A DNA stretch of 64,000 nucleotides from Alphaproteobacteria bacterium (GCA_965216395.1 OZ244156.1:1096765-1160764); one strand, 5' to 3'; shown: positions 892 to 41,220, numbered from the stretch's first letter. The notes: generated by a model not told the origin, from the letters alone. A program made the numbers and translations.

Positions 892-1257
892 TTAAACTTT
901 GGGGGGGCGTTTTAATGAGTAGATAAGGTTTGATGCAAACAAAGTTGTATCAGGTATAAGTATCTTATCTTTGTCAGAAGTATCAATAGATTTGGCATCA
1001 GACAAGTTAGTAGCATGATGAACACAGCATCCAGCGCATGACATCTCACAGCCTTTGCTGCCTAAAGAAGTGCTATCTTGGTCATCAACATCAATGCTTA
1101 TAGAGATTTCTGTGTTTGTATCAACGCTAGCATGAACGTGCGATACGCAGACCATCACAGAGAGGATCATAGCAAACGCAGATAGCACTAAGAAAAATTT
1201 ACTCATATAGAAAAAACTAACATTAAAAAGTAACAGTTGTCGATTCAAATAACTCAT
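892..1257 (-). CDS. Small secreted Cys/His-rich protein, possible periplasmic metal-binding partner of the efflux system
   Basis: ORF track. An internal start at 1206 (MSKFFLVLSAFAMILSVMVCVSHVHA) gives a clean signal peptide. The mature part carries CEMSCAGCCVHH. It lies directly upstream of, and co-oriented with, the OEP gene. A G7 run at 901-907 sits in the last codons. Confidence 0.4.
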   Translation of the reverse strand: MSYLNRQLLLFNVSFFYMSKFFLVLSAFAMILSVMVCVSHVHASVDTNTEISISIDVDDQDSTSLGSKGCEMSCAGCCVHHATNLSDAKSIDTSDKDKILIPDTTLFASNLIYSLKRPPKV

Positions 1258-1444
1258 TCGCTACCTTAAGTCAAATAGTTACAAAAACCTTTAATTATTT
1301 TTCCACACTTCATATTATCACACAAACTATGGTAAATACTGTTGTTATTCATTGATTTAAAATAAAAAATTACATTACTTTTAAAAATGTATTTTCACTG
1401 CTTATTGTCATTTTGATAAGTTCGTTATTGAACTTGACGTCACC

Positions 1445-1780
1445 CTAAACAAGATTTGAAACCTCTGCTGTCATAAATTGTCTTAAAGTTAAATATGCGT
1501 TTTTTACTAAAAAAAGATCTCTTTGAACGTCAGGGTTTTTTCCTCCATGAAATAAATTGTTTCTAACTGAATACCAAAACTCAACCATATTACCCCAATC
1601 ATTAAGCGATAATACTTCACCTTTTTGAATACTATTTTCTTGATTGGGTTGATCACCTGAACTATTCCACCATTTATCAATTTGCTGGTCATCCATGTCA
1701 TGTGAACTATTGTGTAGTGGCTTAGATTTAAGTTCAGAGATAATTTCAGTCCAAGTATCTTTCAAAAAATCATCTTCCAA
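1445..1780 (-). CDS. HEPN-like C-terminal half of a split gene (Rx4H motif)
   Basis: Contains EFWYSVRNNLFHGGKN, i.e. the R-x4-H HEPN signature in a helical context. There is no ATG start (the track start is TTG) and no SD. It overlaps the upstream ORF by 19 nt in the -1 frame at an A7 tract. Confidence 0.55.
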   Translation of the reverse strand: MEDDFLKDTWTEIISELKSKPLHNSSHDMDDQQIDKWWNSSGDQPNQENSIQKGEVLSLNDWGNMVEFWYSVRNNLFHGGKNPDVQRDLFLVKNAYLTLRQFMTAEVSNLV

Positions 1781-2184
1781 TATTTTTTTATGTAAGATTC
1801 TTGTCGCACAGTATCTTTTTTAAGGCATTGTATAACCTTCCGATCATTACTTTGATCAAGATACAGGTTATTTTTAATATGTGCGATAAATGAAAGATAT
1901 TCAAAAACAAATTTAGAGAAATAATCACCCTCACTTGCTTTTTCATGCCAGGCTATAATCAAAGGAGTATAACTTCTTAACTCATCGGAAATCATTTGAA
2001 CAACTTTGTTACACCTCTTACAATAATATTCCACTATACCAATATTCCACGCGCCGTAATCTCCAGACATTTCAGAGGCAATATAATCAGCCATCTGACC
2101 ATCTGTTGCATTATCATCAAGATCAGCCATTTCTTCACGTCGATCTATTTTAACAAGCCGCCTATGGCACAGATCACATTTCAT
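1762..2184 (-). CDS. Zn-ribbon-like N-terminal half of the split HEPN gene
   Basis: CDLC (residues 3-6) and CKRC (about residues 55-58) form a CxxC...CxxC pair. The ATG abuts the stop of the upstream 272-aa gene (TGA ATG). It ends in a stop just after an A_AAA_AAA heptamer. Confidence 0.5.
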   Translation of the reverse strand: MKCDLCHRRLVKIDRREEMADLDDNATDGQMADYIASEMSGDYGAWNIGIVEYYCKRCNKVVQMISDELRSYTPLIIAWHEKASEGDYFSKFVFEYLSFIAHIKNNLYLDQSNDRKVIQCLKKDTVRQESYIKKYWKMIF

Positions 2185-3003
2185 TCAAAACAAACTTGGC
2201 TGTAACGCTATTGGTGGGTGAAAAGTTCCAATAATAACATAGGGGTTTCGCGCTCTCCTTATATGCCACTCCCTCGTAGTTCCAAGAAAGAAATAAAGAT
2301 CTTTTTTAAGAGCAAAATCATCAAAATATTTCTCTTTTACTTTTTTAGAAGCGGCATCTGGTGTTGATTTTTTTAAGCAATTCCAATAAAGAGAACCAAC
2401 TTCCCAGTCCTCAATCATCAATGTACTTCTTTCACCAAGATCATCTTCAAATATATACGAGAATTTCTTAGGTAGCTTTGGCATCATTTTAAAGTCTTCT
2501 ATATTCTGATCTTCAAACAGACTGCCCTGCTTTAGTTGACTTAAAATGCCATTTACCTTGTGCTGAGGCCACTCTGGGTCAGCGTCTTCTATTATAAAAT
2601 CAACAATTTTAGATGGCTTAAATACGGCTAATGATATTTTATCTTTATGTGCTAGTGATATTATTTCTTTTTTATTAGTATAAACTTTTGTCTTTTCTAA
2701 AACTATTTTTTTTCTATCTTCCCACTCACGTGATGTACCTATTTTCTGAAGTAGTTTTATTTCTTGAGTATTAGGAACACGATAGCTTTCTGGCCTAGGG
2801 TCCCCCTTATTTTTCTCAACATCCACTTCAATCCATTGATACTTTGAATAGCGTTTATCTTCTTTAAGTAATCTAAAAGGTATTGGATAAAGCCTTATCC
2901 AAGAACCATCCTCTCTAAAGCCTGCCGTACAAGCAAGTTCTTTATACTTTTCTGAGATAGTAGGATAAGTTTTAACGGTAATTAAAACACGTTCTTTTAG
3001 CAT
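2185..3003 (-). CDS. Conserved hypothetical protein (272 aa), middle gene of the three-gene operon
   Basis: Long ORF with no competing frame. It is 14 nt downstream of the DUF488 gene and directly abuts the ZnR-HEPN gene. I could assign no catalytic motif. The N-terminus is LITVKTYPTISEKYKELACTAGFREDGSWIRLYPIPFR. Confidence 0.6.
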   Translation of the reverse strand: MLKERVLITVKTYPTISEKYKELACTAGFREDGSWIRLYPIPFRLLKEDKRYSKYQWIEVDVEKNKGDPRPESYRVPNTQEIKLLQKIGTSREWEDRKKIVLEKTKVYTNKKEIISLAHKDKISLAVFKPSKIVDFIIEDADPEWPQHKVNGILSQLKQGSLFEDQNIEDFKMMPKLPKKFSYIFEDDLGERSTLMIEDWEVGSLYWNCLKKSTPDAASKKVKEKYFDDFALKKDLYFFLGTTREWHIRRARNPYVIIGTFHPPIALQPSLF

Positions 3004-3017
3004 TATTTATCCTCAAT

Positions 3018-3938
3018 CTATATGTGATTAATTTTATAATCCCATTCAGGTCGATTGGATATTGCTTTAGCAACACGTCCTCTATGACACATACAATGGT
3101 CTGCTTCGAAACAAGTAATTGCAATACGTTTGTGTTTTTGAAAAATAGCTACAAGCTTATCTAAAGCATCTTCATTATCTCTAAGCGTCGTTTTCTCATA
3201 GTCATCAAAAAGACGGTTATAATCAGATTGCGTTTTTAGCTCTTGCCTTTTGTCTGAGACAATTCCTAGTTCTGGTATATGAATATATTCAATACCTAAT
3301 TTTTTAAGAGTCTCAGAAAGTGTAGTCTTAGAAAACCCATATTTGCGACTTAAAGGATTTTTCCTAACATCACACAAAACTTTAACATTATTTTTGATTA
3401 GGCGATTCAAGTAATTTTCAAAGGATTGACCCTCATAACCTATCGTGAAAAAAGCGTGACTTTCATCTACCGGCTTACTATTTTCAATAACAGATAATTC
3501 TTTATCTGACATCAAATCTTGAGAAATTTCACTGTTAATTGCGTAATAAGGGTAATTACGATAAATTTCTTTAATTAGATTTTCGCCACAAATATTTTTA
3601 TATTTATCTTTAAATAAAATAATCTTTTTCTTATCGTCGTTAGATACTTGATCAATATAGTTAGTATTTTCTTCAGCTAAACACCAGTTATCTTCTGGCA
3701 AGATAGCTCCAACCTCAGTTAAACGACGTCGATCTGCATAAGATTGAAATGAAAAACAGCCAAATCGGTAAGGAACAAACTCGTAGCTTTTATCTTTCTG
3801 ACAAATCTCTGTATACAAAAATAAATATTTTTGTAAATCCAAGCTAGATAAACGTCCCCCAAAAGCTTCTAACAAGGCTAGTAGTAGTTTTTGACGACCA
3901 AATAATGATTTTTTCTTCTTAATGCTCATGACAATCAC
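3018..3938 (-). CDS. DUF488-domain fusion protein (N-terminal wHTH/Panacea-like module plus C-terminal DUF488)
   Basis: The C-terminal ~150 aa (FFTIGYEGQSFENYLNRLIKNNVKVLCDVRKNPLSRKYGFSK...GIEYIHIPELG...RIAITCFEADHCMCHRGRVA) follow the DUF488/YeaO-like pattern (TIGH/Y ... DVR ... C-E ... CHR). The N-terminal part (LQKYLFLYTEI...YEFVPYRFGCFSFQSY) loosely resembles DUF4065/SocA-type antitoxin domains; this part is low confidence. Confidence 0.7.
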   Translation of the reverse strand: MIVMSIKKKKSLFGRQKLLLALLEAFGGRLSSLDLQKYLFLYTEICQKDKSYEFVPYRFGCFSFQSYADRRRLTEVGAILPEDNWCLAEENTNYIDQVSNDDKKKIILFKDKYKNICGENLIKEIYRNYPYYAINSEISQDLMSDKELSVIENSKPVDESHAFFTIGYEGQSFENYLNRLIKNNVKVLCDVRKNPLSRKYGFSKTTLSETLKKLGIEYIHIPELGIVSDKRQELKTQSDYNRLFDDYEKTTLRDNEDALDKLVAIFQKHKRIAITCFEADHCMCHRGRVAKAISNRPEWDYKINHI

Positions 3939-4022
3939 AATAGTAAGTTAACTTGTGTTTGTAAAAGGTTAAGTTATTAGCTTAATCAGTAGTTAAATAG
4001 TATTCTATACTTACAAAGTATA

Positions 4023-7000
4023 TTATATATTCTCTTCAATAAGTTTTATTTCATCAGGAGTGAGGTCAAACACTTTGTAAACAGCGTTGTTTAAATCACT
4101 TTCAATAGAGATAATATTATTTGATAATTCAGAAATTGCTTTGCGTTTTTCAGTAAGATATTCCTCCCATTCATCGCGTTGTTTAAGACTAAGCTCTTTC
4201 TTAAAAACTTTTTTAATCTGTTTTTGAAACTCTTTAAAACTCAACTCCCACCATGATTTCAGACTATTATTGAGTTTGTATTCTGTGTCGTCAGGTGCAA
4301 AATCATGGATACGGTTACGTACTTGTTCTTGCAATTCATAGCGCTTCTCTGCAGCAATTTGGGCATTTTCTGCCAAATTTTCGATATTATTTTTTTGTTT
4401 ATTTGTAGCATTAGGGATAGGTAATTTATTTATATAAACAGGTTTTGCTTCTAAATACCCACCTTGCCTTATAATTGCCATATCCTTTAAAACGAACCAA
4501 AGAACATTTGAATTTAATAAGCCGCATACATAATGGCTTGCTCCTGATAATATAGGAGATGGGGCATTAATATAATATTTCTTGTTGTCATAGGAAAACT
4601 GTGGTTTAGATTGCAAATTCCCCCATATAATTTTGGGCTTTTCAAATTCCGTGTGATATGCAACCGTATCTTGAATTTCATACCATTTGTAAGTCCCTGA
4701 CTTCCTACCTATCCATTTTTTGTCAGTTGGCCAATCTTTAGGTTTGGGCATTAGCCTTTCTTTGTGTTTTTCAAGGTATTCTTTAATTGCTGGATATTTT
4801 TCAATATCTATATTTCTCTTAGTAAAAATTAAATAGAGTTTACGAGGTTCTGAAACCCATTTTTTTAAGTCTTTTCCTTCAAGAAAGGGGTGAATAATAT
4901 CATTCGAATTATGGTCTTTTTCAACCAAATTTTTCTTTACTTGAGATGAAATCAAGAAAACATCATTGCACCCTGTAACAACGCCTCTGTATACCAATGG
5001 ATAAATAGTTTCTAGTTTTTGAGATTTCTTTTGAATTTTATAAATTAGCTCTTTTGTGAGTTCACTTTGCAGATTCCATTGATTTTCGTTAAACCATTCT
5101 TGAGGCATGGTTTTTGAACGTTCATTAAAAAGCTTAGAAATATCGTCCTCTGGTTTTTCAGTTATTTTTAAAAATTCTATTTTATGATCTTTCATCGGTA
5201 TTGCATTATCAATCACAAAGATCGCTGGATAAGTTGTTACACCTTCAAATAACTGCACATCTCCAAAGTCTATAATAGTATCTATCTTTGATTTTTTGCT
5301 TAAATACTTGCGTAAATTTTCTCCACTCCCTGTCTTAAAAAAAGTAGCGGAACTGATATATCCCAAACGCCCGATATTAGGTTTTAATATACGCAAACCG
5401 AGTTCAAAAAAATAACTATATAAATCTGCCACGCCATTATAAACCTCATAGCGTTTTTCAAGATACGGTTTCATAGGAGAAATTAATTCTTGCCGGACGT
5501 AAGGTGGGTTTCCTAATACAACATCAAAACCACCGTCCGCGAAGACATCGGAAAATGCCTCTTTCCATGAAAATGCTTGATAAGAATAGTTAGAGTCTTC
5601 AATCACGCTATCACCAACACGCAAATTATCATCTAAGGAATTTAAAACTTTTCCACGCTGGGCTGTTTTTAACCATAAGGAAAGTTTAGTTATTTCTATA
5701 GACTCAGCGTTTACATCAACACCGTATAGGTTGTTATTTAGTATCTCCTTATTAAGGTCGAATACGTCGCGAGTACCGCCTCGTAAATCCGCAATTCGTT
5801 GATTAACACGTTCATATTCAGCATGAAGGTAATCAAAGGCCGCAACTAAGAATGCACCAGAGCCACATGCAGGGTCAACAACACGAATGTTCTTTAATGT
5901 ATCTTGATATGCTCTCCAAAACTTCAGTTCGGCTGCCTTGGATTTCCATTTAACAAGAGGTTGCCCTACAGTCACACCTGCAGTAAAATATTGCCTGCTC
6001 CCTTTTGTAATAAACTCTACCATTAAAAGATTGCGGCGTTTTTCTATATATTCGCCTAAGGTTTTCTCTACGATAAAACGTGTTATTGAGTTGGGGGTAT
6101 AGACAACACCCTCCTTCTTCTTTTTACCGTCTTTTTTCTTAAGACTTAAATCTCCAAACTCTTTTAATGCCTCTATGTCAGAAATGGATTGCTCAAAAAT
6201 ATGACCTAGTATTGTAACACTAACTTCACTTTGAAAATCATACGCACCAATTTTGTTAAAACCTTGAAAAATGCTATCTGGTAATTTTAAACTATCTATT
6301 ATTTTGTTAGGCGCAAATAAACCGCCATTATATTTGGGTATATTAAGAGATTTGTTTCCCTTATCTATAAAAGTGAAAAGTGCCTTAAAATTTTCCCAAA
6401 TAGGTTTGGGATTGTATTTGTCTTTATGCCTATAAGCTTCGTTCAAACTATCTTCAGGAAGAAGTCCCTTATCTTCAGCAAAAGCAATAAACAAAATACG
6501 ATCTAAAATTAACTGTGCATAGCCAACAGCATCTTGAAATATAATAGTTGGATTATTATCTGTAATTGCATGAATCAGGTTATGGCGAATTACCTTATAA
6601 TCCTGATAAAGGCGATCAGTAATCTCTTTATCCTGTTTTTCAGACTGTTTTAACCACTCATAAGTTTGACCACCAAGCAAATTATCTTTGTTAAGAAGTA
6701 AGTAAAAACGTTTGTACTCTTCTGGTTCACTTAGTAGGTCAAGTGAAAAACGCTCATAATTTTGCCTACCATAACCTACGGCATATAAACGTATTTCCAA
6801 ATAATTAGAAATAATAACCCACTTAGCCCCTTTAGCATCCATAGCATAATCCCATGCTTGTTGCACTGGAGTTTTATTGCGGCCTGACATGATAGCGTCT
6901 AAAGATGTTTTTGCCCCTTTGAGCTCAAATGGTGCAAGACATGAGTTTTTCTCTGGTAAGTTTGGGTCAATAAAACTTCCTAATGCTAGGTCAACACGTG

Positions 7001-7247
7001 TTCCAGCTATTGGGTATTCTACAGCAACATCATAATTGCCTGATGTTGATCCGAATGGTTTATACCCTAATACTTGGGTAACAATATTTTCTGTAAAAAT
7101 ACCATGTAAAGAAGTTTCCTTTTGAAGATAGATACTGCCATCTTTAATTGAGTTGGCCCAATTTTCTAGTATTTTCAAATGACCCGATGGGATTTCTATT
7201 GGCTGTTTAAGTAATTTATTTATTACTTTTGGATGAAAAAGTTCCAT
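4023..7247 (-). CDS. Type IIG restriction-modification enzyme (single-chain PD-(D/E)xK nuclease, gamma-class N6-adenine methyltransferase and TaqI-like specificity domain)
   Basis: 1074 aa. N-terminal VDLALG...APFELKGAK (D...ExK). Methyltransferase motif I VVDPACGSGAFLVAAF and motif IV VLGNPPYV. The C-terminal region with WYEIQD...KIIWGNL is typical of Eco57I/MmeI-like target-recognition domains. Confidence 0.85.
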   Translation of the reverse strand: MELFHPKVINKLLKQPIEIPSGHLKILENWANSIKDGSIYLQKETSLHGIFTENIVTQVLGYKPFGSTSGNYDVAVEYPIAGTRVDLALGSFIDPNLPEKNSCLAPFELKGAKTSLDAIMSGRNKTPVQQAWDYAMDAKGAKWVIISNYLEIRLYAVGYGRQNYERFSLDLLSEPEEYKRFYLLLNKDNLLGGQTYEWLKQSEKQDKEITDRLYQDYKVIRHNLIHAITDNNPTIIFQDAVGYAQLILDRILFIAFAEDKGLLPEDSLNEAYRHKDKYNPKPIWENFKALFTFIDKGNKSLNIPKYNGGLFAPNKIIDSLKLPDSIFQGFNKIGAYDFQSEVSVTILGHIFEQSISDIEALKEFGDLSLKKKDGKKKKEGVVYTPNSITRFIVEKTLGEYIEKRRNLLMVEFITKGSRQYFTAGVTVGQPLVKWKSKAAELKFWRAYQDTLKNIRVVDPACGSGAFLVAAFDYLHAEYERVNQRIADLRGGTRDVFDLNKEILNNNLYGVDVNAESIEITKLSLWLKTAQRGKVLNSLDDNLRVGDSVIEDSNYSYQAFSWKEAFSDVFADGGFDVVLGNPPYVRQELISPMKPYLEKRYEVYNGVADLYSYFFELGLRILKPNIGRLGYISSATFFKTGSGENLRKYLSKKSKIDTIIDFGDVQLFEGVTTYPAIFVIDNAIPMKDHKIEFLKITEKPEDDISKLFNERSKTMPQEWFNENQWNLQSELTKELIYKIQKKSQKLETIYPLVYRGVVTGCNDVFLISSQVKKNLVEKDHNSNDIIHPFLEGKDLKKWVSEPRKLYLIFTKRNIDIEKYPAIKEYLEKHKERLMPKPKDWPTDKKWIGRKSGTYKWYEIQDTVAYHTEFEKPKIIWGNLQSKPQFSYDNKKYYINAPSPILSGASHYVCGLLNSNVLWFVLKDMAIIRQGGYLEAKPVYINKLPIPNATNKQKNNIENLAENAQIAAEKRYELQEQVRNRIHDFAPDDTEYKLNNSLKSWWELSFKEFQKQIKKVFKKELSLKQRDEWEEYLTEKRKAISELSNNIISIESDLNNAVYKVFDLTPDEIKLIEENI

Positions 7248-7318: not shown

Positions 7319-9676
7319 TTACGCTGACTTTACTTCTGGCTCCTGTAAAGAAGCACTATCATTAATGGTTTCAGAGTCCTCACCCATCATTTTTTTATAA
7401 TGTTCATGAAATTCAGTTTGTTTAAATACACTTTCAAAATATCCTATGAACTTTTCAACATCAACTTCTTTCAAATCCGTATAATTGACTGCATCAGAAT
7501 ATGATTCTTTATTTACGTACCTTTCAAAAATTGAAAAAACAACATCATCCTCTGTGTCTCTTAATTTTTCAAACGCCTTTGATAACTTATTTTGACAATG
7601 AATAAAGTTAAAATAATGCTCTAGAATATTTCTCATTGCATTCGGTAAAATAACTGGTGATGCTTTATTGTTTTTAACATCTTTAATTACTTGCCAATAG
7701 GATTCATAATTATTTTGAATTTGTGATCTATTTATTTTTTCAATTATAGACCGTTTTCCCTTTATAACTCTATAAGTAGCACATTTTTTACCTAACTCAT
7801 TTCCTGTATTTCTTTCTATTTGAGCAAACATTTCATGTAAAAAATATAAATGATGTGTAAGTACTATAACCTGCCCATAAACTTTATCTTTAGAAAAAAA
7901 GATTTTTTTAATTAGGCAAGAAATATCAAAAACATGGTTAAATGAAAGACTAGATATTGGGTCATCTATTACAATAACACGATCTTCAATTGAAACTTTT
8001 GTATCAGCATCTGTTACCCCCATACAACTCTGAACAAAATACAAAAAAGAGATAAGTGTTTTTTCTCCTTCACTAAGTGAATGAAAAACGTTTTTCCCTG
8101 TATCCGTACGAGTTAATCGATAAAAAGTAATACTATCAATCACCTCTTTTTCAAAAGAAAACCCACTAAGGCCTATTAATTTAAGAGTTTTATCAATCCA
8201 TATTACAGCTTCATCTACATTTTTAGTTTCATTTTGAAACTTTTGAATTATTGCATCTTCACTTTTTAAAACTTCTTCTAATTCTTTGATTTTAAAAATT
8301 AAAGGTTTTTGATCAAAAGTATTTTTTTCTTTAGCAGTGTTGAAATCAGTAATTGTTTTATCAGCTAATTTTCTTATTAAGCACCAAAATTCATTTTTAA
8401 TTTCATCTTTAAATAATTTACTATCTTTGAGTTTATTATTGAAAGCTATATGTTCAGCATTTATAGCTGCAATAGTATTATTAATAAAAGTTATTTTATT
8501 TTCTGTTGAAATTAATTCAACAATAGTATTTGGGGCAGATATTTTTGAATTAATCTTTCTATTATTACTCTCAAGAATAATCCTTAAATTCTTACATTCT
8601 TCTTTTAAATTTTTATTAGACATTAAAATGTCAGAACTATCATAAGAATCTAGTATTACTAGCAAGTCTTCAGCTTTTAAATTGTATGATTTTTCTAAGC
8701 TTTTTAATTGCTCGATTTTAAATTGATATTGAGTATCAATATGAGATTTTATTTTGTCTTTTAAATCAATACTTAAATCCCTATAACAAAAAGGGCAGTC
8801 ATCCGTTTTATCAAGATATTTATCTATCCCTTCATTAAGCCAATTCTCATGCTCTAATTGATCTATTAAACCAGACAAATAGCCATCTTTAGAACTAGCA
8901 ATAATTTCTTTGAAGAGGATATTATTCTCAAATTCAGAAAAGCCTGTTTCTAGTAAAGAGAAAATTTCCTTCTCAGTTGAAGAACCATCAGAAAGTTCTG
9001 CATACTCAACAGCTATACTGTTAATTTTATCTGGTATTTTTTCTATTTCTAATTCATGTATATTAGAGCTAACCACCTTGTCTTTAAATTTTTTTGCAGG
9101 CACGAGGTAACCCGTCATACATTCTTTTAAAGATTGTGTAGTTTCATACATTTTTTTGAATTTATATACTTCATCTATAAGTTTTTTTTCTAATAATTTT
9201 TGTTCTTGACCTAGTGCTAGTAATTTTTCATCAAGTGGTTTTTTTTCTGCTGTGACAACTTCTTTTCGTTGATTGGCTTCTGAAATAGCTTCTATAGCTT
9301 TTTTATTGGTTTCATCCAGAGTAAAAATACCTTTTTGTTTATCTTCAGTATAAAAAGTGTCCTTCACGTAATCTTCATTATAAACCAAAGATTCAAGCGG
9401 TTTTTTAGGGGATGACAAAGTAACATTACAATCTTCATAACCCTCACGGTTTTGATCAGCCAACAGCCTAGAAATTGTTGTTTTCCCAGAACCATTAAGA
9501 CCATAAATAAAATTATATTTTTTAAGTGCTAACGATTCAGGCTCAGTAAAGCTTGTTACTTTTGAAATTGTTATGCTTTTTACTGGGTGTGAAGACGGAA
9601 CAACACTTTGAACCTTAGACTTAATACTTTTTATGACACCCGACATTTCAACCTCTATTATATTATCGTTATACAA
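7319..9676 (-). CDS. RloC/PrrC-family AAA_13 ATPase, putative tRNA anticodon nuclease with a coiled-coil/zinc-hook insert
   Basis: 785 aa. Walker A YGLNGSGKTT. A long Lys/Glu-rich coiled-coil insert carries CPFC (DDCPFCYRDL) near its middle. Walker B VIVIDDPISSLSFNH. The C-terminal LPNAMRNILEHYFNFIH resembles the PrrC/RloC nuclease-domain R..E..H region. It lies immediately upstream of an R-M gene, as prrC and rloC do. Confidence 0.75.
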   Translation of the reverse strand: MYNDNIIEVEMSGVIKSIKSKVQSVVPSSHPVKSITISKVTSFTEPESLALKKYNFIYGLNGSGKTTISRLLADQNREGYEDCNVTLSSPKKPLESLVYNEDYVKDTFYTEDKQKGIFTLDETNKKAIEAISEANQRKEVVTAEKKPLDEKLLALGQEQKLLEKKLIDEVYKFKKMYETTQSLKECMTGYLVPAKKFKDKVVSSNIHELEIEKIPDKINSIAVEYAELSDGSSTEKEIFSLLETGFSEFENNILFKEIIASSKDGYLSGLIDQLEHENWLNEGIDKYLDKTDDCPFCYRDLSIDLKDKIKSHIDTQYQFKIEQLKSLEKSYNLKAEDLLVILDSYDSSDILMSNKNLKEECKNLRIILESNNRKINSKISAPNTIVELISTENKITFINNTIAAINAEHIAFNNKLKDSKLFKDEIKNEFWCLIRKLADKTITDFNTAKEKNTFDQKPLIFKIKELEEVLKSEDAIIQKFQNETKNVDEAVIWIDKTLKLIGLSGFSFEKEVIDSITFYRLTRTDTGKNVFHSLSEGEKTLISFLYFVQSCMGVTDADTKVSIEDRVIVIDDPISSLSFNHVFDISCLIKKIFFSKDKVYGQVIVLTHHLYFLHEMFAQIERNTGNELGKKCATYRVIKGKRSIIEKINRSQIQNNYESYWQVIKDVKNNKASPVILPNAMRNILEHYFNFIHCQNKLSKAFEKLRDTEDDVVFSIFERYVNKESYSDAVNYTDLKEVDVEKFIGYFESVFKQTEFHEHYKKMMGEDSETINDSASLQEPEVKSA

Positions 9677-10040: not shown

Positions 10041-10859
10041 ATGATTACACTGGAACAAATTTTAAATTCACAAAGCACAATACTTGAAGATGCTAAAGTC
10101 AAAGTCGTTCGCCATAAAGATAGTCGAACCGAATACCGCGATATTTTAAAAGACCGTGAACAACTGCTTGAATATCAAATGGGGCAGAAAAACCATGTTT
10201 TTAAAGATTGCGATTACATTATTTCTTTTATTGGACTAGAGCGAAAACGATCTCTTTTCATTGGTGTGTTTAAAGTTGGTGATTATAACAAAGCACCAGA
10301 CAATCACCGTTATAATCATTTATATGACTTAACCCCTGTCCCTGAATTTAAACATCTTGAAGATCGGCTTATTATCGATTGGGGCAACAATGCTATTTCT
10401 TGGCATCAGTGGTATGACAAACAACCCAAAGGGGTGATTGAAATTCTGCCCCAAGGATATATTGGCAACTTCCCTGGCCTGCTCAACTTCACCCTTGAAT
10501 TTGATGAACTTAAAAAACTAACCAATAACCCTGATGCTAATTTTGATTGGAAGAACCACCTATCATCGGTCAATGGTGTTTATATGATTTTAGATACTTT
10601 GACAGGACAACAATATATTGGATCAGCTAATGGTAAAAATGGGATTTGGCAAAGATGGTGTGAGTATGCAATTAACTATACAGGTGGTAATAAAGAGCTT
10701 ATCCAATTAATCAAACAAGACGCAAACCATCACAAGAATTTCAGGTTTTCGATTTTACAAACTTTGCCTAGCAACATCACTCAAAAAGAAATTGTTGCCA
10801 TCGAAAATCTTTACAAACAAAAATTAGGCTCAAAAGCGCATGGCTTGAATAACAATTAA
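10041..10859 (+). CDS. GIY-YIG nuclease-domain protein with an uncharacterised N-terminal domain
   Basis: The C-terminal ~90 aa read VNGVYMILDTLTGQQYIGSANGKNGIWQRW...ENLYKQKLG (GIY...YIG...R...E/N pattern). The N-terminal ~180 aa are unassigned. Confidence 0.75.
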   Translation: MITLEQILNSQSTILEDAKVKVVRHKDSRTEYRDILKDREQLLEYQMGQKNHVFKDCDYIISFIGLERKRSLFIGVFKVGDYNKAPDNHRYNHLYDLTPVPEFKHLEDRLIIDWGNNAISWHQWYDKQPKGVIEILPQGYIGNFPGLLNFTLEFDELKKLTNNPDANFDWKNHLSSVNGVYMILDTLTGQQYIGSANGKNGIWQRWCEYAINYTGGNKELIQLIKQDANHHKNFRFSILQTLPSNITQKEIVAIENLYKQKLGSKAHGLNNN

Positions 10860-11178: not shown

Positions 11179-12501
11179 ATGACTAAACCAAATAAACAAC
11201 ATGACCCACAAATTACATGGGTCGATGCTGGCACCCTCACCCCTTATATTAACAACGCTAAAAAACACCCTGAAAAACAAATACACCAGATTGCCGAGAG
11301 CATAAAACAGTTTGGCTTTATCAATCCAATATTGGTTGATGACAAAAATATTGTCATTGCAGGTCATGGTCGACTTGAAGCAGCTAAACTGATTGGTATG
11401 GCGGAAGTGCCTGTTATTTTGATCAGCCATTTAAGTGAAGAAGAAGCACGCGCCTATCGCTTGGCTGATAATCAGCTGACCATGAATACGGGATATGATG
11501 ACGGGTTATTAAAAATTGAGCTTACTGAACTCAACGCGCTTGATTTGGACTTTGAATTAGAAATCACCGGATTTGAAACCGCAACACTTGACCTGATCAT
11601 TGATCAATCCAATATGGCCGACAATGATGAGGCTGATGAGCTACCCGATATTGATGACAACACTGTGCCTGTTACTCAGCTTGGTGATATCTGGCAGCTC
11701 GGTGATCATCGTCTTATTTGCGGTGATGCAACACAAGCAGAGACCTATCAAAAACTGATGGGCGATGATGACAAGGCGCAAGCGATTTTCACAGACCCAC
11801 CATATAATGTACCCGTTGATGGTCATGTTTGCGGTGCTGGTAAAATCAAGCATCGTGAGTTTGCCATGGCATCAGGCGAAATGACCCGCGATGAGTTTCT
11901 CACCTTCCTTTCATCTTTCATCAAGATGTCGATTGAGCACAGCGTCGACGGATCACTCCATTATATTTGTATGGACTGGCGCCATATTCGGGATCTGATT
12001 GAAAGCAGTGACGGCCTGTACAGCGATCTCAAGAACATCTGCGTCTGGAATAAAGACAATGGTGGTATGGGGTCGCTCTATCGATCAAAGCATGAGTTCG
12101 TCGCCGTCTTTAAAAACGGCACAGCGCCCCACACCAACAATATCAAACTTGGCAAGCACGGACGCTATCGTACAAATGTTTGGGATTACAAAGGTGTGAA
12201 CAGTTTTGGCTCAAACCAAGCTGATCTAAAAATGCACCCAACCGTCAAACCAGTCGCAATGGTCAGTGATGCCATTAAGGATTGTACCAAACGTGAACAA
12301 AGCGTCCTTGACCCCTTCTCCGGTTCAGGAACAACACTGATGGCCTGTGAAAAATCGGGTCGGCATGCGCGCTGCATTGAGCTGGATCCAATCTATTGCG
12401 ATGTCATCATCAAGCGTTGGCAGGATTTAACCGGCCTGGATGCTGTTCACAGTGTCACTGGCAAAACATTTACTGAAATTAAGGAAGACGACCATGAGTA
12501 A
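11179..12501 (+). CDS. ParB-like nuclease domain fused to an N6/N4 DNA methyltransferase
   Basis: The N-terminus (NPILVDDKNIVIAGHGRLEAAKLIG) is ParB/Srx-like. The centre has IFTDPPYNV (motif IV). The C-terminus has VLDPFSGSGTTLMACE (motif I). This is beta-class permuted order, typical of phage/GTA ParB-methyltransferase fusions. Confidence 0.85.
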   Translation: MTKPNKQHDPQITWVDAGTLTPYINNAKKHPEKQIHQIAESIKQFGFINPILVDDKNIVIAGHGRLEAAKLIGMAEVPVILISHLSEEEARAYRLADNQLTMNTGYDDGLLKIELTELNALDLDFELEITGFETATLDLIIDQSNMADNDEADELPDIDDNTVPVTQLGDIWQLGDHRLICGDATQAETYQKLMGDDDKAQAIFTDPPYNVPVDGHVCGAGKIKHREFAMASGEMTRDEFLTFLSSFIKMSIEHSVDGSLHYICMDWRHIRDLIESSDGLYSDLKNICVWNKDNGGMGSLYRSKHEFVAVFKNGTAPHTNNIKLGKHGRYRTNVWDYKGVNSFGSNQADLKMHPTVKPVAMVSDAIKDCTKREQSVLDPFSGSGTTLMACEKSGRHARCIELDPIYCDVIIKRWQDLTGLDAVHSVTGKTFTEIKEDDHE

Positions 12502-12883
12502 TAATGACAATAACGACGATTATGACGTTGGCTACGGTAAGCCACCCAAAAACACGCGCTTTGGTGCAAAGGATGGCAATCCAAGAAATCAAAAAGGACG
12601 ACCAAAAATACCAAACACTTTGGAAGAAGAAGCTCAGGCTGTTTTTAAAGCAAAAATAGGCATCACTCTTAATGGCAGGAAGACCAAAATTTCAAGGCGT
12701 CAGGCACTCATGGAAGTAATTGTTAATGGCGCCATTAACGGTGATGCACGCATGATGCGCCTAGCCATCCCGTTGTCCAAACTCGCTGACAACGCTCCTG
12801 AGATGGAAGTCCTCCCTGAAGATGAGATGGCACTCAAACGCTTATTAGAAAACATGAGCGATAATGGTGATGGTCATGAATAA
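12494..12883 (+). CDS. DUF5681-type small basic protein (terminase small-subunit-like)
   Basis: The ATG at 12494 overlaps the upstream stop (ATGAGTAA). VGYGKPPKNTRFGAKDGNPRNQKGRPK is the hallmark N-terminus of DUF5681 proteins, which sit upstream of terL in alphaproteobacterial phage-like elements. Confidence 0.55.
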   Translation: MSNNDNNDDYDVGYGKPPKNTRFGAKDGNPRNQKGRPKIPNTLEEEAQAVFKAKIGITLNGRKTKISRRQALMEVIVNGAINGDARMMRLAIPLSKLADNAPEMEVLPEDEMALKRLLENMSDNGDGHE

Positions 12884-14000
12884 TATTACAAACATTATCG
12901 ATATGTACCGCTATGATTTTCGAAGTTATATTGGTTTTTCTTATCGTACGCTACACCCCTATGAGCATCTTCAAGATAATTGGCACATTGATCTCTTAGC
13001 CGGTCATATCGAAGCGCTTGTTAAAAATGGAGAAAAACGACTTATTATTAATCTACCGCCACGCACACTCAAATCACATTGTGTGAGCGTGGCATTGACC
13101 ACATGGCTCTTGGGGCGTGATCCATCAACAAAAATTCTCTGTCTTCATGGCAGTGATGTTTTAGGACGCGATCTGCATGATGCTTCCAGACAACTTATGA
13201 TGCATCCAAGATACCGCGCCCTGTTTCCAGGAACAGTCATTCATGATAACAATAGAAAGATTCAAACGACATTTGGTGGTAAACGATTATTTTTACCCTT
13301 CATGAAAAATCTAACGGGGCTTGGCGCTGATTATATCATCATTGATGATCCCATCAGTGCAACAGATGCTCAAAATGATTCAATGCGCGATGCTGTTAAC
13401 AGACAGTTTGACCGTAATATTATTCAGCGCCTGAATCATAAATCATCTGGTATTATTATCGTTGTGATGCAACGCCTACATGAGCATGATCTGACAGGGC
13501 ACTTGCTGAGTAAGAAAATAGGCTTTCACCATCTCAATATTCCAGCTATTGCCATGGAAGACACAATTTGGAAATTGCCTCATAACAAAACCTATCAATG
13601 GCGTAAGGGTGAAGCGCTTCATAAAACACGCGAACCGCGCGAAGAACTTATCAAGACGCTACACTTAATTGGTGGATATGCTTTTGCTCATCAATATTTA
13701 CAAGGGTTATATAAGCCACATTTTGGCGAAAATGAGAAAGGTGCAATCTGGTTAAGCCCAGCGCGTGAGGGAGAATTTTATGATTTTCGAACCAATACCA
13801 ATCCACATGGATTTTATCATATTAGTGAAGAACATCTGATCACAGCAAAAGTGTTTGGTATTGGCGAAGACCCCTATCCTGATAATATGCGCTATAAACT
13901 AACCTTGGAAGAAGTTCTCGAACAAGCTAGGCTTCATCGTGAAAAACACCTTGAAGAAGAACGATTACGAATTGAGGCAGAAAACAAAGAATCTGGTTAA
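12864..14000 (+). CDS. Terminase large-subunit-like ATPase that appears to lack the C-terminal nuclease domain
   Basis: Walker A-like LPPRTLKS and Walker B DYIIIDDP, then VVMQRLHEHDLTGHLL and AHQYLQG, as in TerL ATPase domains. It is only 378 aa and ends in a charged coiled-coil tail (EEERLRIEAENKESG), not an RNase H-like nuclease fold. Confidence 0.65.
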   Translation: MVMVMNNITNIIDMYRYDFRSYIGFSYRTLHPYEHLQDNWHIDLLAGHIEALVKNGEKRLIINLPPRTLKSHCVSVALTTWLLGRDPSTKILCLHGSDVLGRDLHDASRQLMMHPRYRALFPGTVIHDNNRKIQTTFGGKRLFLPFMKNLTGLGADYIIIDDPISATDAQNDSMRDAVNRQFDRNIIQRLNHKSSGIIIVVMQRLHEHDLTGHLLSKKIGFHHLNIPAIAMEDTIWKLPHNKTYQWRKGEALHKTREPREELIKTLHLIGGYAFAHQYLQGLYKPHFGENEKGAIWLSPAREGEFYDFRTNTNPHGFYHISEEHLITAKVFGIGEDPYPDNMRYKLTLEEVLEQARLHREKHLEEERLRIEAENKESG

Positions 14001-14005
14001 ATTGA

Positions 14006-14563
14006 TTGGACTTCCCCCTCAAGGTAAGCGTTACTGTTGGTGTTGCAACAACGAGAGACACTATCATGCCAAGACAATATTTGAACATTTCAACAGCCCC
14101 CCTATATAAAGTCAGCGATATCCCCGTCGATAAGGCGCTCAAACAGATTAAGAAGCTTCAAGGTCAACCACTGCGCCAAACTTATATTAAGATCTGCGGC
14201 CAAGACGGTGTTCTTCGGGTCAAGAATAATAAAGATTTACTACAAAGGCGCCTCTATCAAAATGTTCAAAAACGCCATTTGGGCGGCTTATCAACTAAAC
14301 ATTACAATACACTCTATCGCCTTGTGAGAGACACCTCTCCTGACCGGAAACCCTCTGTTAAAAATAAGTATAACCTATCAGAAGGGTCTGTTTTAAAACG
14401 CACATGGCAAGAACGTGAACATCAGGTTCGCGTTACTGATAAGGGCTTTAATTATCAGGGGCAAACCTACGTTTCACTTAGTCGCATTGCTAAAATCATT
14501 ACAGGTCATGAGCGCTCTGGCCCGGCTTTTTTTGGGCTTAAACAACGCGAGCAAGCATCATGA
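14006..14563 (+). CDS. DUF2924-domain protein (recombinase-associated)
   Basis: The C-terminal GSVLKRTWQEREHQVRVTDKGFNYQGQTYVSLSRIAKIITGHERSGPAFFGL fits the DUF2924 pattern. It overlaps the serine recombinase start by 4 nt. The true start may be the ATG at 14066. Confidence 0.6.
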   Translation: MDFPLKVSVTVGVATTRDTIMPRQYLNISTAPLYKVSDIPVDKALKQIKKLQGQPLRQTYIKICGQDGVLRVKNNKDLLQRRLYQNVQKRHLGGLSTKHYNTLYRLVRDTSPDRKPSVKNKYNLSEGSVLKRTWQEREHQVRVTDKGFNYQGQTYVSLSRIAKIITGHERSGPAFFGLKQREQAS

Positions 14564-16269
14564 CGGCAGAAAACAAAAAATTACGCTGCGCGGTCTACAC
14601 CCGCAAATCAAGCGAAGAAGGTTTAGATCAGGAATTCAATTCACTTGATGCACAGCGCATTGCTGGGGAAGCATATATCCAAAGCCAACAGCATGAAGGC
14701 TGGACGCTTGTTAAAACCGCATATGACGATGGTGGATATAGCGGCGGCAATATCGAACGACCCGGATTAAAAAAGCTTATCTCTGATATTAAACAGCGCA
14801 AGGTTGATGTTGTGGTGGTTTACAAAATTGATCGCCTCACCCGTTCCCTGATGGATTTTTCGAGAATTGTTGAAATCTTTGACGCATACAATGTCAGCTT
14901 TGTTAGCGTCACGCAAAGTTTTAACACCACGACCTCTATGGGACGACTAACACTCAACGTCCTGCTCTCCTTTGCCCAGTTTGAACGTGAAGTCACCGGT
15001 GAGCGTATTCGCGATAAAATCAAAGCGAGCAAGCAAAAAGGAATTTGGATGGGCGGTCGCCCTCCCTTTGGTTACGATGTTGTCAATCGCAAGCTCATTA
15101 TTAATGAAAAAGAAGCCGAACAAATACATTATATATATGAGCAATATTTAAAGAAAAACTCCTGTCATAAAATATTAGTTGATCTGAACACGAAAGGCAT
15201 CACTCAAAAATCTTGGGTCACGCAAAAAGGCAAAGCCATCACTGGCAAGCCGTTTACAACCACTACCATCTACAATCTTCTTAAAAATCCGATTTATCTG
15301 GGTAAACTCAAATATAAAGACAATATATATGATGGTGAGCATAACCCCATTATTGATCAAGATATCTGGGACAAGGTTCAGAGTAAATTGAAAAGCAGGG
15401 CTGCTAATAAGAATGGGCGCAAAAATAAAGTAGCGCCTTTTTTATTAAAAGGAAAAATCTTTGATGACGCGGGGCGCAAATATTCAACCACATACACGTC
15501 TAAAACACGAAATGGTATTAGGAAATACACACGCTACTATGTCATGCTCAAAGAAGCCAAAAAAGGCTATGTCATCAACACTCCACGCTATATTAATGCT
15601 GATGAAATCAAAGAGATTACTCACTCTCTTTTGACAGCTTGTTTAAAAGATGAACTAAGACTTCAAAAACAATGGCACGGCGTTAGTCCTAAACAGCGCG
15701 ATCAACTCTTGAAGAAAGCTATTGTCAGAGTAATGATCAGCAAGGACCAGATCAGAGCTGAGTTTGATAAAGTACAGGTCAAGCGTATTATCAATAAATA
15801 CAAAAAACAGGATATTGCTTTTATTGAGAATGCCAGAGCTAGAAAAAGAACAGTATCAAACATTGATGTTATTGATACTGAGACAAATATGTCTTGTGTT
15901 CTCAACTATGCTTACAAATCCTATAAAGGAAAAAAGATCATTACTGACACATTAGGGCGTGATATTACTGCTCATAAAACAAACAAGAACTCTGATCTGA
16001 TCAGCGCGCTTGTCACCGCCCATCAATGTCATGAACATCTCAAGAAAGGCTCAATAACAAGCATCAAAAAGCTCTCAGAAAAAATGAAACGAGACCCCTC
16101 TTACATTAGTAAAATCATCAAGCTGTATTCTCTATCGCCTAAGATCAAGGCAACCATTCTCGATGGCAATCAGCCTCGCACCACAACTGTGCAATCTCTG
16201 ATTAAAATCAGTCGGCACATTGATTGGAAAAAGCAGGAGGGCTTATTTGGGTTGATATCAAAAGCATAA
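14560..16269 (+). CDS. Large serine recombinase (resolvase/invertase N-domain, recombinase domain and Zn-ribbon/coiled-coil)
   Basis: LRCAVYTRKSSEEGLDQEFNSLDAQR (catalytic Ser region), VVVVYKIDRLTRS, FAQFEREVTGERIRD; 569 aa. Confidence 0.9.
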   Translation: MTAENKKLRCAVYTRKSSEEGLDQEFNSLDAQRIAGEAYIQSQQHEGWTLVKTAYDDGGYSGGNIERPGLKKLISDIKQRKVDVVVVYKIDRLTRSLMDFSRIVEIFDAYNVSFVSVTQSFNTTTSMGRLTLNVLLSFAQFEREVTGERIRDKIKASKQKGIWMGGRPPFGYDVVNRKLIINEKEAEQIHYIYEQYLKKNSCHKILVDLNTKGITQKSWVTQKGKAITGKPFTTTTIYNLLKNPIYLGKLKYKDNIYDGEHNPIIDQDIWDKVQSKLKSRAANKNGRKNKVAPFLLKGKIFDDAGRKYSTTYTSKTRNGIRKYTRYYVMLKEAKKGYVINTPRYINADEIKEITHSLLTACLKDELRLQKQWHGVSPKQRDQLLKKAIVRVMISKDQIRAEFDKVQVKRIINKYKKQDIAFIENARARKRTVSNIDVIDTETNMSCVLNYAYKSYKGKKIITDTLGRDITAHKTNKNSDLISALVTAHQCHEHLKKGSITSIKKLSEKMKRDPSYISKIIKLYSLSPKIKATILDGNQPRTTTVQSLIKISRHIDWKKQEGLFGLISKA

Positions 16270-16308
16270 CAAGCTAATGATATTAGAAGCTATTGTTAGG
16301 AGTTCCAC

Positions 16309-17046
16309 TTGTTCACACCAGAAATTATCAAACATCTTGGACATTACGTCTATCGCCTTATTGATCCTCGTAATGGTGAAACATTTTATGTTGGGAAAGG
16401 GACTAAAAATCGTGTTTTTGATCATGTAAAAGGTGAAATCAAAAGTAAAGATGATGATGACATAAGTCATAAGTTGCAACGTATTAGAGATATTCGTGTT
16501 GACGGCTTTGAAGTTGCGCATGTTATTCATAGGCATGGTTTAGATAGCAAAACAGCCTTTGAAGTTGAAGCAGCCCTGATGGATGCTTATCCAGAAACAA
16601 CCAATGTATCAGGCGGCAGACATTCTGGTGAACGCGGGATCATGCATTCAAAGCAAGTAATTGAACGATATAAAGCAAATGAAACACCCTTTAAACACAA
16701 ACTCTTGATGATTACTGTTAATCGTTCAATATCTGAAAGAGATAGTATTTATGAAGCTGTTAGGTGGGCTTGGAAACTAGCCCCTAAAACAGCCAAACAA
16801 GTTGATTATGTTTTAGCCATGCAACAAGGACTTGTTATTGGTGTGTTCGTTGCAGAAGAATGGTTAAAAGCAACGCCTGAAAACTTTCCAGGCAAAATTG
16901 CTCGCCCGAGACGATGGGGGTTTAATGGGCATGAAGCGCCAGAAGATATTAAGAAAATTTACATGCGCACTAGGATACCCGATGATATGTATAAAAAGGG
17001 AGCAGCCAATCCCATAAAATACATACTAGAGCCCGACAAACATTGA
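16309..17046 (+). CDS. GIY-YIG domain protein (second copy of the fold, different family)
   Basis: The N-terminus GHYVYRLIDPRNGETFYVGKGTKNRVFDH has the GIY-(10)-YIG spacing. It uses a TTG start 6 nt after AGGAG. Confidence 0.65.
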   Translation: MFTPEIIKHLGHYVYRLIDPRNGETFYVGKGTKNRVFDHVKGEIKSKDDDDISHKLQRIRDIRVDGFEVAHVIHRHGLDSKTAFEVEAALMDAYPETTNVSGGRHSGERGIMHSKQVIERYKANETPFKHKLLMITVNRSISERDSIYEAVRWAWKLAPKTAKQVDYVLAMQQGLVIGVFVAEEWLKATPENFPGKIARPRRWGFNGHEAPEDIKKIYMRTRIPDDMYKKGAANPIKYILEPDKH

Positions 17047-17074
17047 GGTATGGCAAAAACAAACTCTACAGCTG
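17045..17074 (+). repeat. Junction motif copy 1 (GAGGTATGGCAAAA...ACAGCTG)
   Basis: GAGGTATGGCAAAAACAAACTCTACAGCTG. Related copies end the two long repeats at 18541-18570 and 21048-21077. Confidence 0.7.
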
Positions 17075-17301
17075 ATTAGATGAAAATTGCCTTATTTGCA
17101 TTTTGACCTGTATCTGGCGACCATGTTTTTGCAAAATAACCTCGCAACGACCCCAGTGATGCGCGGTTGTGAAATAAGATTTCAATTTTTAAAGATATAA
17201 GTGTAATGATTGGTGGTTCGATCTATACTCGAATTAACGCCAACACAGCTCTCTAGATCACTTGATATATCTGAGGTTGAAGTGGATTAATATATCCACT
17301 T

Positions 17302-21213: not shown

Positions 21214-21289
21214 TGGTGGAGCTGAGCGGGCTCGAACCGCCGACCTCTTCGCTGCCAGCGAAGCGCTCTCCCAGCTGAGCTACAGCCCC
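21214..21289 (-). tRNA. tRNA-Ala (anticodon GGC)
   Basis: Reverse complement: GGGGCTGTAGCTCAGCTGGGAGAGCGCTTCGCTGGCAGCGAAGAGGTCGGCGGTTCGAGCCCGCTCAGCTCCACCA. It folds as a cloverleaf with G3:U70, anticodon loop CTGGCAG and an encoded CCA. Confidence 0.95.
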
Positions 21290-40642: not shown

Positions 40643-41220
40643 GTGAAACAAATATTATCATCGGCTCTGATCTCAAAAAACGTTGTGGGTGGTGTGGTAA
40701 TGATCCTTTATACGTTGCTTATCACGATCATGAATGGGGGCGCCCCCAAAAAGATAATATTAAACTCTTTGAACAAATCTGTTTAGAGGGTTTTCAATCA
40801 GGCCTCAGTTGGATCACAATTTTGCGAAAAAGAGATAATTTTCGAAACGCTTTCGATCATTTCGACTATTCTCAAATCATTCAATATGATGATCAAAAAA
40901 TAGAAAACCTTCTTACGAATAAAGGGATTATTCGCCACTCAGGTAAAATAAAAGCCGTTATTAACAATGCGCGTTGCGCTCTTAAACTATTAGATGAATA
41001 CACATCATTGGCCGATTATTTTTGGCGTTTTCAAGGTGAAACACAAAAAAATACTTCTCAAACACCCATAACCGTCAATAAAGAAGCCCAAGCCATGGCA
41101 AAAGACCTCAAAAATCGGGGCTGGAAATTTGTTGGTCCCACAACCTGTTATGCTTTTATGCAAGCGGTTGGGATCGTCAATGACCATGCAGCAGAGTGTT
41201 TTTTAAAAGGTAAAATTTAA
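40639..41220 (+). CDS. tag: DNA-3-methyladenine glycosylase I
   Basis: CGWCGNDPLYVAYHDHEWGRP...LEGFQSGLSWITILRKR. Confidence 0.9.
   Translation: MSETNIIIGSDLKKRCGWCGNDPLYVAYHDHEWGRPQKDNIKLFEQICLEGFQSGLSWITILRKRDNFRNAFDHFDYSQIIQYDDQKIENLLTNKGIIRHSGKIKAVINNARCALKLLDEYTSLADYFWRFQGETQKNTSQTPITVNKEAQAMAKDLKNRGWKFVGPTTCYAFMQAVGIVNDHAAECFLKGKI

Follow-up and report, generated by a model that had tools for sequence, protein, structure and literature searches.

A DUF488–OB gene pair matching the defence candidate PDC-M19, followed by a separate and probably decayed zinc-ribbon gene in an alphaproteobacterial genome

The minus strand of a 64,000-nucleotide stretch from an Alphaproteobacteria bacterium (GCA_965216395.1 OZ244156.1:1096765-1160764; the whole stretch is referred to here as the window) carries three closely packed open reading frames (ORFs) at positions 1445-3938, which we call genes 1, 2 and 3 in order of transcription. 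An initial annotation had proposed them as one undescribed defence or toxin-antitoxin (TA) module. Our analysis points to a composite picture, which we consider rather likely: an intact copy of PDC-M19, a two-gene cassette listed in PADLOC, followed by a separate, decayed gene from another family that carries a zinc ribbon and an R-x4-H motif. The three-gene proposal mostly rediscovers a catalogued candidate together with an unrelated, probable pseudogene.

Layout of the locus

The features of the locus are as follows.

3018..3938, minus strand: gene 1, PDC-M19A; ORF of 306 aa from a GTG start
3459..3902, minus strand: N-terminal domain of gene 1, about aa 13-160; weakly Panacea-like or winged helix-turn-helix (wHTH)-like
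3063..3419, minus strand: DUF488 domain of gene 1 (Pfam PF04343), aa 174-292; predicted catalytic
3081..3113, minus strand: CFEADHCMCHR motif of gene 1, candidate active site, with C276, E278 and C284-H285-R286 invariant
2185..3003, minus strand: gene 2, PDC-M19B; 272 aa
1762..2184, minus strand: 5' fragment of gene 3, 140 aa; CxxC...CxxC zinc ribbon
1445..1780, minus strand: 3' fragment of gene 3, 111 aa, in the -1 frame; helical, HEPN-like domain
1547..1564, minus strand: RNNLFH, the R-x4-H motif of gene 3, part of VRNNLFHGGK
1783..1789, minus strand: frameshift site, A7 on the coding strand (T7 on the plus strand); the intact state would be A8

The packing of the three ORFs was as initially described. 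Genes 1 and 2 are separated by 14 nt (ATTGAGGATAAATA), which include a GAGG Shine-Dalgarno sequence, and the stop codon of gene 2 directly abuts the start of gene 3 (TGAATG). For gene 1, an ATG at 3929 is a likelier start than the GTG, as it fits the homologues better. All three can be taken as real genes and not chance ORFs because full-length homologues are numerous for every one of them (more than 7,580 of gene 2, 77 of gene 1 as its neighbour and 280 of the repaired gene 3). In a promoter and terminator scan of 1200-4300, the number of sites fell below the chance expectation.

Genes 1 and 2 match PDC-M19 and travel as a pair

Gene 1 matched the PADLOC model PDC-M19A with E=8.2e-120 (aa 13-306 on model positions 2-294 of 294) and gene 2 matched PDC-M19B with E=4.8e-114 (aa 1-272 on model positions 1-269 of 269). 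Both hidden Markov models (HMMs) are therefore matched over their full length, and the two genes are adjacent, on the same strand and in the A>>B order of PDC-M19, from which we found no structural difference; gene 3 lies outside it. By these profile matches, the mobile two-gene cassette PDC-M19 is present intact at positions 2185-3938. The pair is already catalogued, as a computational candidate, and so is not the undescribed module that had been suggested; its 272-aa middle protein, initially left without a family, is a PDC-M19B member with a predicted tandem OB fold.

PDC-M19 is one of 145 'phage defence candidates' computed by Payne et al. 2024 (bioRxiv 10.1101/2024.01.29.577857), which the authors describe as untested and which they derived from genes located within BREX, DISARM and Type I restriction-modification (R-M) systems. 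In the supplement of the same study it is the two-family cassette FAM_02799>>FAM_02993 (CAS_00089), with a figure of 174, apparently occurrences. The pair in the window itself adjoins an R-M enzyme, in line with this discovery criterion. Our literature search on PDC-M19, on DUF488 with defence and on DuOB found no functional study.

The linkage of the genes was surveyed in 80 other genomes or loci from many phyla. A gene 1 homologue was found immediately upstream of the gene 2 homologue in 77 of these, and the remaining three loci were interrupted by contig ends, which bears out the tight coupling first proposed for this pair. When all neighbouring ORFs of the 80 loci were clustered, no conserved neighbour other than the gene 1-gene 2 pair was detected; just 10 of 65 loci had any tightly coupled ORF downstream, and Type IIG or methyltransferase-like neighbours resembling that of the window occurred in 7/80. 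The homologues of gene 2 (60-77% identity) come from Acidobacteria, Nitrospira, Alphaproteobacteria, Bacteroidota and other phyla, and a search with its profile gave 2,594 clusters at 50% identity. Judging by these neighbourhoods, genes 1 and 2 form a strict and mobile two-gene unit.

Gene 3 behaved differently. No relative of it was present in the 80 PDC-M19 loci, and neither gene 1 nor gene 2 was present in any of 74 loci surveyed for gene 3 relatives. Because of this lack of co-occurrence in both directions, gene 3 is placed outside a three-gene unit, and the genomic evidence is that it is separate from genes 1 and 2. The initial annotation had stated that its hypothesis would fail if homologues of the three genes did not co-occur in other genomes, and this is what was observed for gene 3; of the two partners for which it had suggested surveying the neighbourhoods of gene 2 homologues, DUF488 was found and relatives of the HEPN-like gene 3 were not (0/80). 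A defence or TA system of three components, in which the HEPN protein would be the effector, could still be read from the tight packing and the TGAATG junction in the window, and the supplement of Payne et al. also contains a rare cassette, FAM_02799>>FAM_02993>>FAM_02906, with a figure of 2 (10.1101/2024.01.29.577857), whose third family has no stated identity. However, relatives of gene 3 are joined as tightly to unrelated upstream genes (gaps of -11 to +60 nt), and in the window gene 3 is frameshifted while genes 1 and 2 are intact. Together with the co-occurrence counts, this makes a three-component system highly improbable.

Gene 3 is frameshifted and belongs to a defence-associated family

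The zinc ribbon, the R-x4-H motif and the frameshift of gene 3 were all confirmed. The 5' fragment has CDLC (aa 3-6) and CKRC (aa 55-58) and ends early past the frameshift, at a stop codon at 1762-1764. The lesion corresponds to a deletion of one nucleotide, from A8 to A7; adding one A to the run restores a 246-aa protein that is collinear from end to end with homologues of 245 aa, at about 60% identity. Since 27 other homopolymer runs of at least 7 bases inside long ORFs of the window are all in frame, the frameshift is probably a real mutation and the gene is inactivated here. Other copies of the family from metagenomes (L119 and L134/L135) are also split into two ORFs, which suggests that the family is frequently pseudogenised, perhaps owing to a cost or toxicity of its protein.

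Alternatively, the full-length protein could still be made, either because the frameshift is an assembly error, homopolymer indels being common errors of this kind, or through -1 ribosomal or transcriptional slippage at A_AAA_AAA, giving a low-level or phase-variable product. Read in the 0 frame, the A7 run fits X_XXY_YYZ exactly; shifting by -1 at this site leads into homologue-like sequence. The in-frame state of the 27 other runs argues against this, as do the homologues from the protein search, which are single ORFs of about 245 aa, and the disrupted metagenomic copies, which suggest a family that often decays. We therefore consider continued production of the full-length protein unlikely.

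In the alignment of close gene 3 homologues (A2), VRNNLFHGGK is invariant. In the alignment of distant relatives (A4), the motif reads VRNNLFHGxK, in which R, L, G and K never vary and each of V, N, N, F and H is at least 90% conserved. The two halves of gene 3 matched nothing in Pfam, NCBIfam or PADLOC, and the family as such is absent from Pfam, NCBIfam and PADLOC v2; its homologues gave weak matches to Zn_ribbon families of Pfam. A search of PDB sequences with the gene 3 profile returned no match beyond noise, and no relatives were detected among the viral contigs scanned.

The initial annotation had called the last gene a HEPN protein and a possible RNase effector on the strength of its R-x4-H signature. 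The signature itself is conserved, as described above, but no profile or structural match reached significance. No HEPN family was among the 25 most-matched of the 58 Pfam families for A2. Among the distant relatives, HEPN_Apea was the commonest Pfam match, yet it stayed below threshold (5/33, best E=0.0053); in PADLOC, the family matched DzbB with E=2.6e-4 and CARF_HEPN with E=0.024. The AlphaFold2 (AF2) model of gene 3 (pLDDT 77) is all-helical past the zinc ribbon, and a Foldseek search of PDB with this model gave nothing with E<1; Csm6 and Cas13bt appeared at E 2-5 only. Membership of the HEPN group is thus weakly supported, and RNase activity of the family is possible, at slightly less than an even chance.

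Full-length relatives were found directly after Avs4 (L086), Avs3a (L093) and an OloB/LmuA-like protein (L085), and also after an HNH-domain protein (L081) and a protein matching DNA methylases (L103). In another locus (L082), the relative follows a DUF2779 gene, itself located behind HsdR, an OLD-family ATPase and a UvrD helicase; we read the last two as a Gabija-like pair. Shorter relatives that lack the zinc ribbon occur within Type I R-M operons, between hsdM and hsdS/hsdR. Further loci with gene 3 relatives are L110, L122, L124, L127 and L136. From these contexts, gene 3 looks like a member of an unlisted defence-associated gene family that occurs with or without an N-terminal zinc ribbon. 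Its repeated attachment to Avs, Gabija-like, Olokun/Lamassu-like and Type I R-M systems makes this family a good candidate for a new defence gene, either stand-alone or accessory.

The nearest comparisons are with the Apea-like HEPN proteins and with HEC-08, a DUF3644 HEPN protein with a zinc ribbon that was validated by Payne et al. (10.1101/2024.01.29.577857). Gene 3 shares with these the R-N-x-x-x-H motif and the defence-embedded location and, with HEC-08, the zinc ribbon, although the order of the domains is reversed in gene 3, with the zinc ribbon at the N-terminus. Unlike the R-M-associated HEPN families, it has no HMM match above threshold and no structural match with E<1, and it is probably a pseudogene in the window.

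The protein encoded by gene 1

The DUF488 domain initially recognised in gene 1 was confirmed by Pfam (PF04343, E=5.1e-27; 95.3 bits, compared with a gathering threshold of 22.2). In an alignment of 22 gene 1 homologues with identities as low as 29% (A3), C276, E278 and C284-H285-R286 do not vary. Burroughs and Aravind reportedly assigned DUF488 to the rhodanese-phosphatase superfamily in 2023, and are said to have predicted its action on the sugar or phosphate moieties of ADP-ribose derivatives or nucleic-acid ends.

For the N-terminal domain (N-domain), a likeness to DUF4065/Panacea-type antitoxins had been noted from two stretches, LQKYLFLY (3813-3836) and FVPYRFGCFSF (3747-3779). Both stretches are present, but the profile evidence is slight: SocA_Panacea (PF13274) matched 5/22 gene 1 homologues below threshold (best E=2.2e-4), did not match the protein of the window at E up to 1, and is among the precomputed assignments of none of 99 N-domain homologues. 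The top PDB profile match of the domain was 7yk3_B (residues 31-74, E=0.11), a chain deposited as a DNA ADP-ribosyl glycohydrolase, which we take to be DarG. A tblastn search found a haloarchaeal ORF annotated as PadR (E=1e-3), and in PADLOC the domain weakly resembled Type I S-subunit models at their C-terminal end. Searching PDB sequences with gene 1 alone gave noise only. Taken together, the N-domain is weakly Panacea/wHTH-like and probably has a partner-binding or regulatory function. Stand-alone homologues of 150-200 aa without DUF488 also exist on long contigs (P0394, P0398, P0402 and P0421), so the N-domain and DUF488 may occur as separate genes too.

The protein encoded by gene 2

The AF2 model of gene 2 was of good quality (pLDDT 86, pTM 0.85), and Foldseek matched it in PDB to an RPA-DNA filament and to HIN-200 proteins (IFI16, AIM2, p202 and p204) with probabilities of 0.97-0.99 and TM scores of 0.2-0.4. 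Its neighbours in BFVD were the baculovirus LEF-3 and phage single-stranded DNA-binding proteins (SSBs); LEF-3 is itself a single-stranded DNA (ssDNA)-binding protein. The Pfam family DuOB ('dual OB') gave sub-threshold matches to distant family members (3/107). PDB sequence searches with the gene 2 profile gave noise only, the noise of the PDB searches overall consisting of arenavirus L, DnaK and YegP. The structural model thus indicates that gene 2 is probably a tandem OB-fold protein that binds DNA. Its likeness to HIN-200, RPA and LEF-3 does not extend to sequence (identity of 8-12%), and it has extra helices.

Among 107 diverse members of the family, R37, D68, R70 and W200 are invariant and about 20 more positions are nearly so. 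In contrast to simple OB binders, gene 2 adds an invariant set of acidic and basic residues, and its conservation appears to exceed what a passive binder would need.

The DUF488-OB pairing in distant relatives

The linkage between DUF488 and the OB protein is kept at about 27-32% identity and in another gene layout. On the Rhizobium plasmid pRL8, the OB gene is accompanied by a short DUF488-only protein on the opposite strand, in convergent orientation, and seven Gordonia phages carry a convergent pair of this kind (for example, gp43 OB and gp42 DUF488-only in Eviarto, beside the immunity repressor and the integrase). The Eviarto pair (MH479912.1, 3974-5271) lies directly beside the repressor gene gp44 and near the integrase gene gp39, and six related phage records exist. 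Prophage defence genes usually sit in the lysogeny/immunity module of actinophages. The 'immunity repressor' gp44 was also considered as a gene 1 homologue and rejected (BLASTP E=0.67, with only a sub-threshold HTH_31 match in Pfam), leaving gp42 as the DUF488 partner. In one further locus (L071), a full-length gene 1 homologue is convergent to the OB gene.

Since convergent DUF488-OB layouts recur, a functional coupling of the OB protein with an enzyme is favoured over a classic co-transcribed TA pair. These layouts favour an enzyme that would process nucleic acids, with which a DarTG-like logic remains compatible. The DUF488-OB partnership also appears to predate the fusion with the N-domain.

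The most distant case was found on the archaeal conjugative plasmid pSOG2 of Sulfolobus islandicus (4001-5361), where a gene 2 homologue is located by an integrase gene and is followed by an ORF of 168 aa. This ORF was tried as a DUF488 protein and rejected (hhalign probability 0.1). By eye it has a D...E-x-K-like motif (IDLVAL...AFEMK), and from this motif alone it may be an alternative, nuclease-like partner. The DUF488-OB partnership ranges from Proteobacteria to actinophage prophages, with a possibly nuclease-like partner on the archaeal plasmid.

Possible roles of PDC-M19

The most probable role of PDC-M19 is in anti-phage defence or in conflict between mobile genetic elements (MGEs), and we lean slightly towards the cassette serving defence. 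In the mechanism that we propose, the OB protein of gene 2 would be the target-recognising subunit, binding ssDNA or the DNA ends of invaders or replication intermediates. The DUF488 protein of gene 1 would be the catalytic subunit, whose Cys/Glu/Cys-His-Arg site could process a phosphate or sugar moiety at nucleic-acid termini, and its N-domain could either tether DUF488 to the OB partner or restrain it together with that partner. This division of labour between OB binder and DUF488 enzyme is put forward tentatively. A new mode of immunity could then be envisaged, in which a HIN/RPA-like OB sensor of foreign ssDNA or DNA ends directs the editing of termini by a rhodanese-phosphatase-type DUF488 enzyme, or in which the OB protein introduces a DNA modification that DUF488 removes, as in DarTG; this we regard as somewhat unlikely.

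Another possibility is that PDC-M19 is a TA pair of the PanAT/DarTG type, with gene 2 as a DNA-directed toxin (a replication-blocking binder or a DNA modifier) and gene 1 as a dual-mode antitoxin, in which the Panacea-like domain would bind the toxin and DUF488 would reverse the damage, like the macrodomain of DarG. The sub-threshold SocA_Panacea matches and the DarG match of the N-domain are consistent with this, as are the many invariant charged residues of gene 2 and the position of the putative antitoxin gene, which is upstream and translationally coupled over the 14-nt spacer. Kurata et al. PNAS 2022 also discuss a precedent for dual function, DarG, in which a domain for enzymatic reversal is found together with one that binds the toxin. 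The layout of gene 1 is likewise bipartite, with a putative partner-binding domain and an enzyme domain, and a DNA-directed partner would be expected. However, the enzyme is DUF488 and not a macrodomain, the partner is a predicted tandem OB protein and not an ADP-ribosyltransferase, and the similarity to DarG covers only 44 residues of the N-domain.

With the PanAT systems, which have Panacea/DUF4065 antitoxins (Kurata et al. PNAS 2022), gene 1 shares the pattern LQK..F/Y...P(Y/W)..G(P/C)(F/Y)S, the sub-threshold PF13274 matches of its homologues and a position upstream of a variable partner. It differs in that the domain is fused to DUF488 and that the Panacea signal is weak, with the protein of the window below every Pfam threshold. 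In distant relatives, moreover, association with the partner tracks DUF488 and not the N-domain: the partner is convergent, not co-transcribed, in pRL8, Eviarto and L071, which is atypical for type II TA, and for the first two of these the partner is a DUF488-only protein without the N-domain. We consider a TA pair of the PanAT/DarTG type unlikely.

The pair could also act for the benefit of the MGEs that carry it, in repair, establishment or anti-defence, if an SSB-like OB protein and an end-processing enzyme guard or repair incoming plasmid or phage DNA. This would agree with the replication proteins found as structural neighbours of gene 2 (SSB, RPA and LEF-3), with the presence of gene 2 homologues on 23 plasmid records, 11 of them conjugative, and with the pRL8 pair, which adjoins DUF3991-toprim, DUF1419 and a large DEAD/DEAH helicase. 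On the other hand, the cassette was picked by Payne et al. for its occurrence within BREX, DISARM and Type I R-M systems. In the window, the pair is flanked by a Type IIG R-M enzyme and by another defence-associated gene, and PDC-S06 and UzuA are close to it; the Gordonia pair is located in a lysogeny/immunity module; and Type IIG or methyltransferase-like neighbours recur in the seven loci mentioned above. A benefit to the MGE alone seems quite unlikely.

Several points weigh against a defence cassette of OB binder and DUF488 enzyme standing beside a decayed gene 3. The argument for defence comes entirely from genomic context, and many gene 2 homologues are found on conjugative plasmids by establishment-type genes, which fits repair or anti-defence. 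The chemistry considered for DUF488 follows what Burroughs and Aravind reportedly predicted, and in Sulfolobus the gene 2 homologue has no DUF488 neighbour. In the modelled structure of gene 2, the high Foldseek probability for the OB assignment is accompanied by TM scores of 0.2-0.4, and with its invariant charged residues (E22, R37, K54, D68, R70, E72, R97, D199 and E201) the protein could be an enzyme itself. For gene 3, an isolated sequencing error at the A7 tract is possible.

DUF488 is a very widespread domain without a settled function, and its strict partnership with an OB protein gives a concrete system in which its substrate can be looked for. With 60-77% identity between phyla and about 2,600 clusters at the 50% identity level, the OB partner is highly conserved, and the residues singled out are C284, H285 and R286 in gene 1 and R37, D68, R70 and W200 in gene 2.

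The defence-island setting

Three defence-related genes lie upstream of gene 1.

4023..7247, minus strand: Type IIG R-M enzyme (PADLOC REase_MTase_IIG, E=1.4e-147)
7319..9676, minus strand: AAA_13 ABC-ATPase, RloC/PrrC-like (Pfam AAA_13, E=6e-101; PADLOC PDC-S06, E=4e-202)
10041..10859, plus strand: UzuA (Uzume), GIY-YIG protein (PADLOC, E=3e-93), at the edge of the low-GC island

The Type IIG enzyme, with the Pfam domains Eco57I, N6_Mtase, TaqI_C and MmeI, is co-oriented with gene 1 and located 84-93 nt upstream of it. The GC content of the block at about 1.4-10 kb is 26-36%, compared with 40-46% further right in the window. Because the Type IIG enzyme, PDC-S06 and UzuA share this low-GC block, the defence-island setting, as first proposed, is real. 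The co-oriented neighbour once described as an RloC-like anticodon nuclease is indeed an AAA_13 protein of RloC/PrrC-like type, but no clear RloC: it is the PADLOC candidate PDC-S06 and matched PrrC with E=1.7e-9 only. Its C-terminal region contains RNILEH (7616-7633), an R-x4-H motif resembling that of gene 3.

An overlapping ORF pair at 41217-44172 was considered as a second frameshift in the window and rejected, since the genes concerned, GlpK and GlpD, are both intact. On the right-hand side of the defence genes, the block at 11179-18426 encodes a fusion of ParB_N with a DNA methylase, DUF5681 and DUF2924 proteins, a 378-aa ORF without a Pfam match, a LEM-3-like GIY-YIG protein and a Fic/DUF4172 protein. 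A large serine recombinase is encoded at 14560-16269, and a tRNA-Ala gene is located at 21214-21289, followed by cmk at 21378. Taken as a whole, the block resembles an integrative mobile element with defence cargo.

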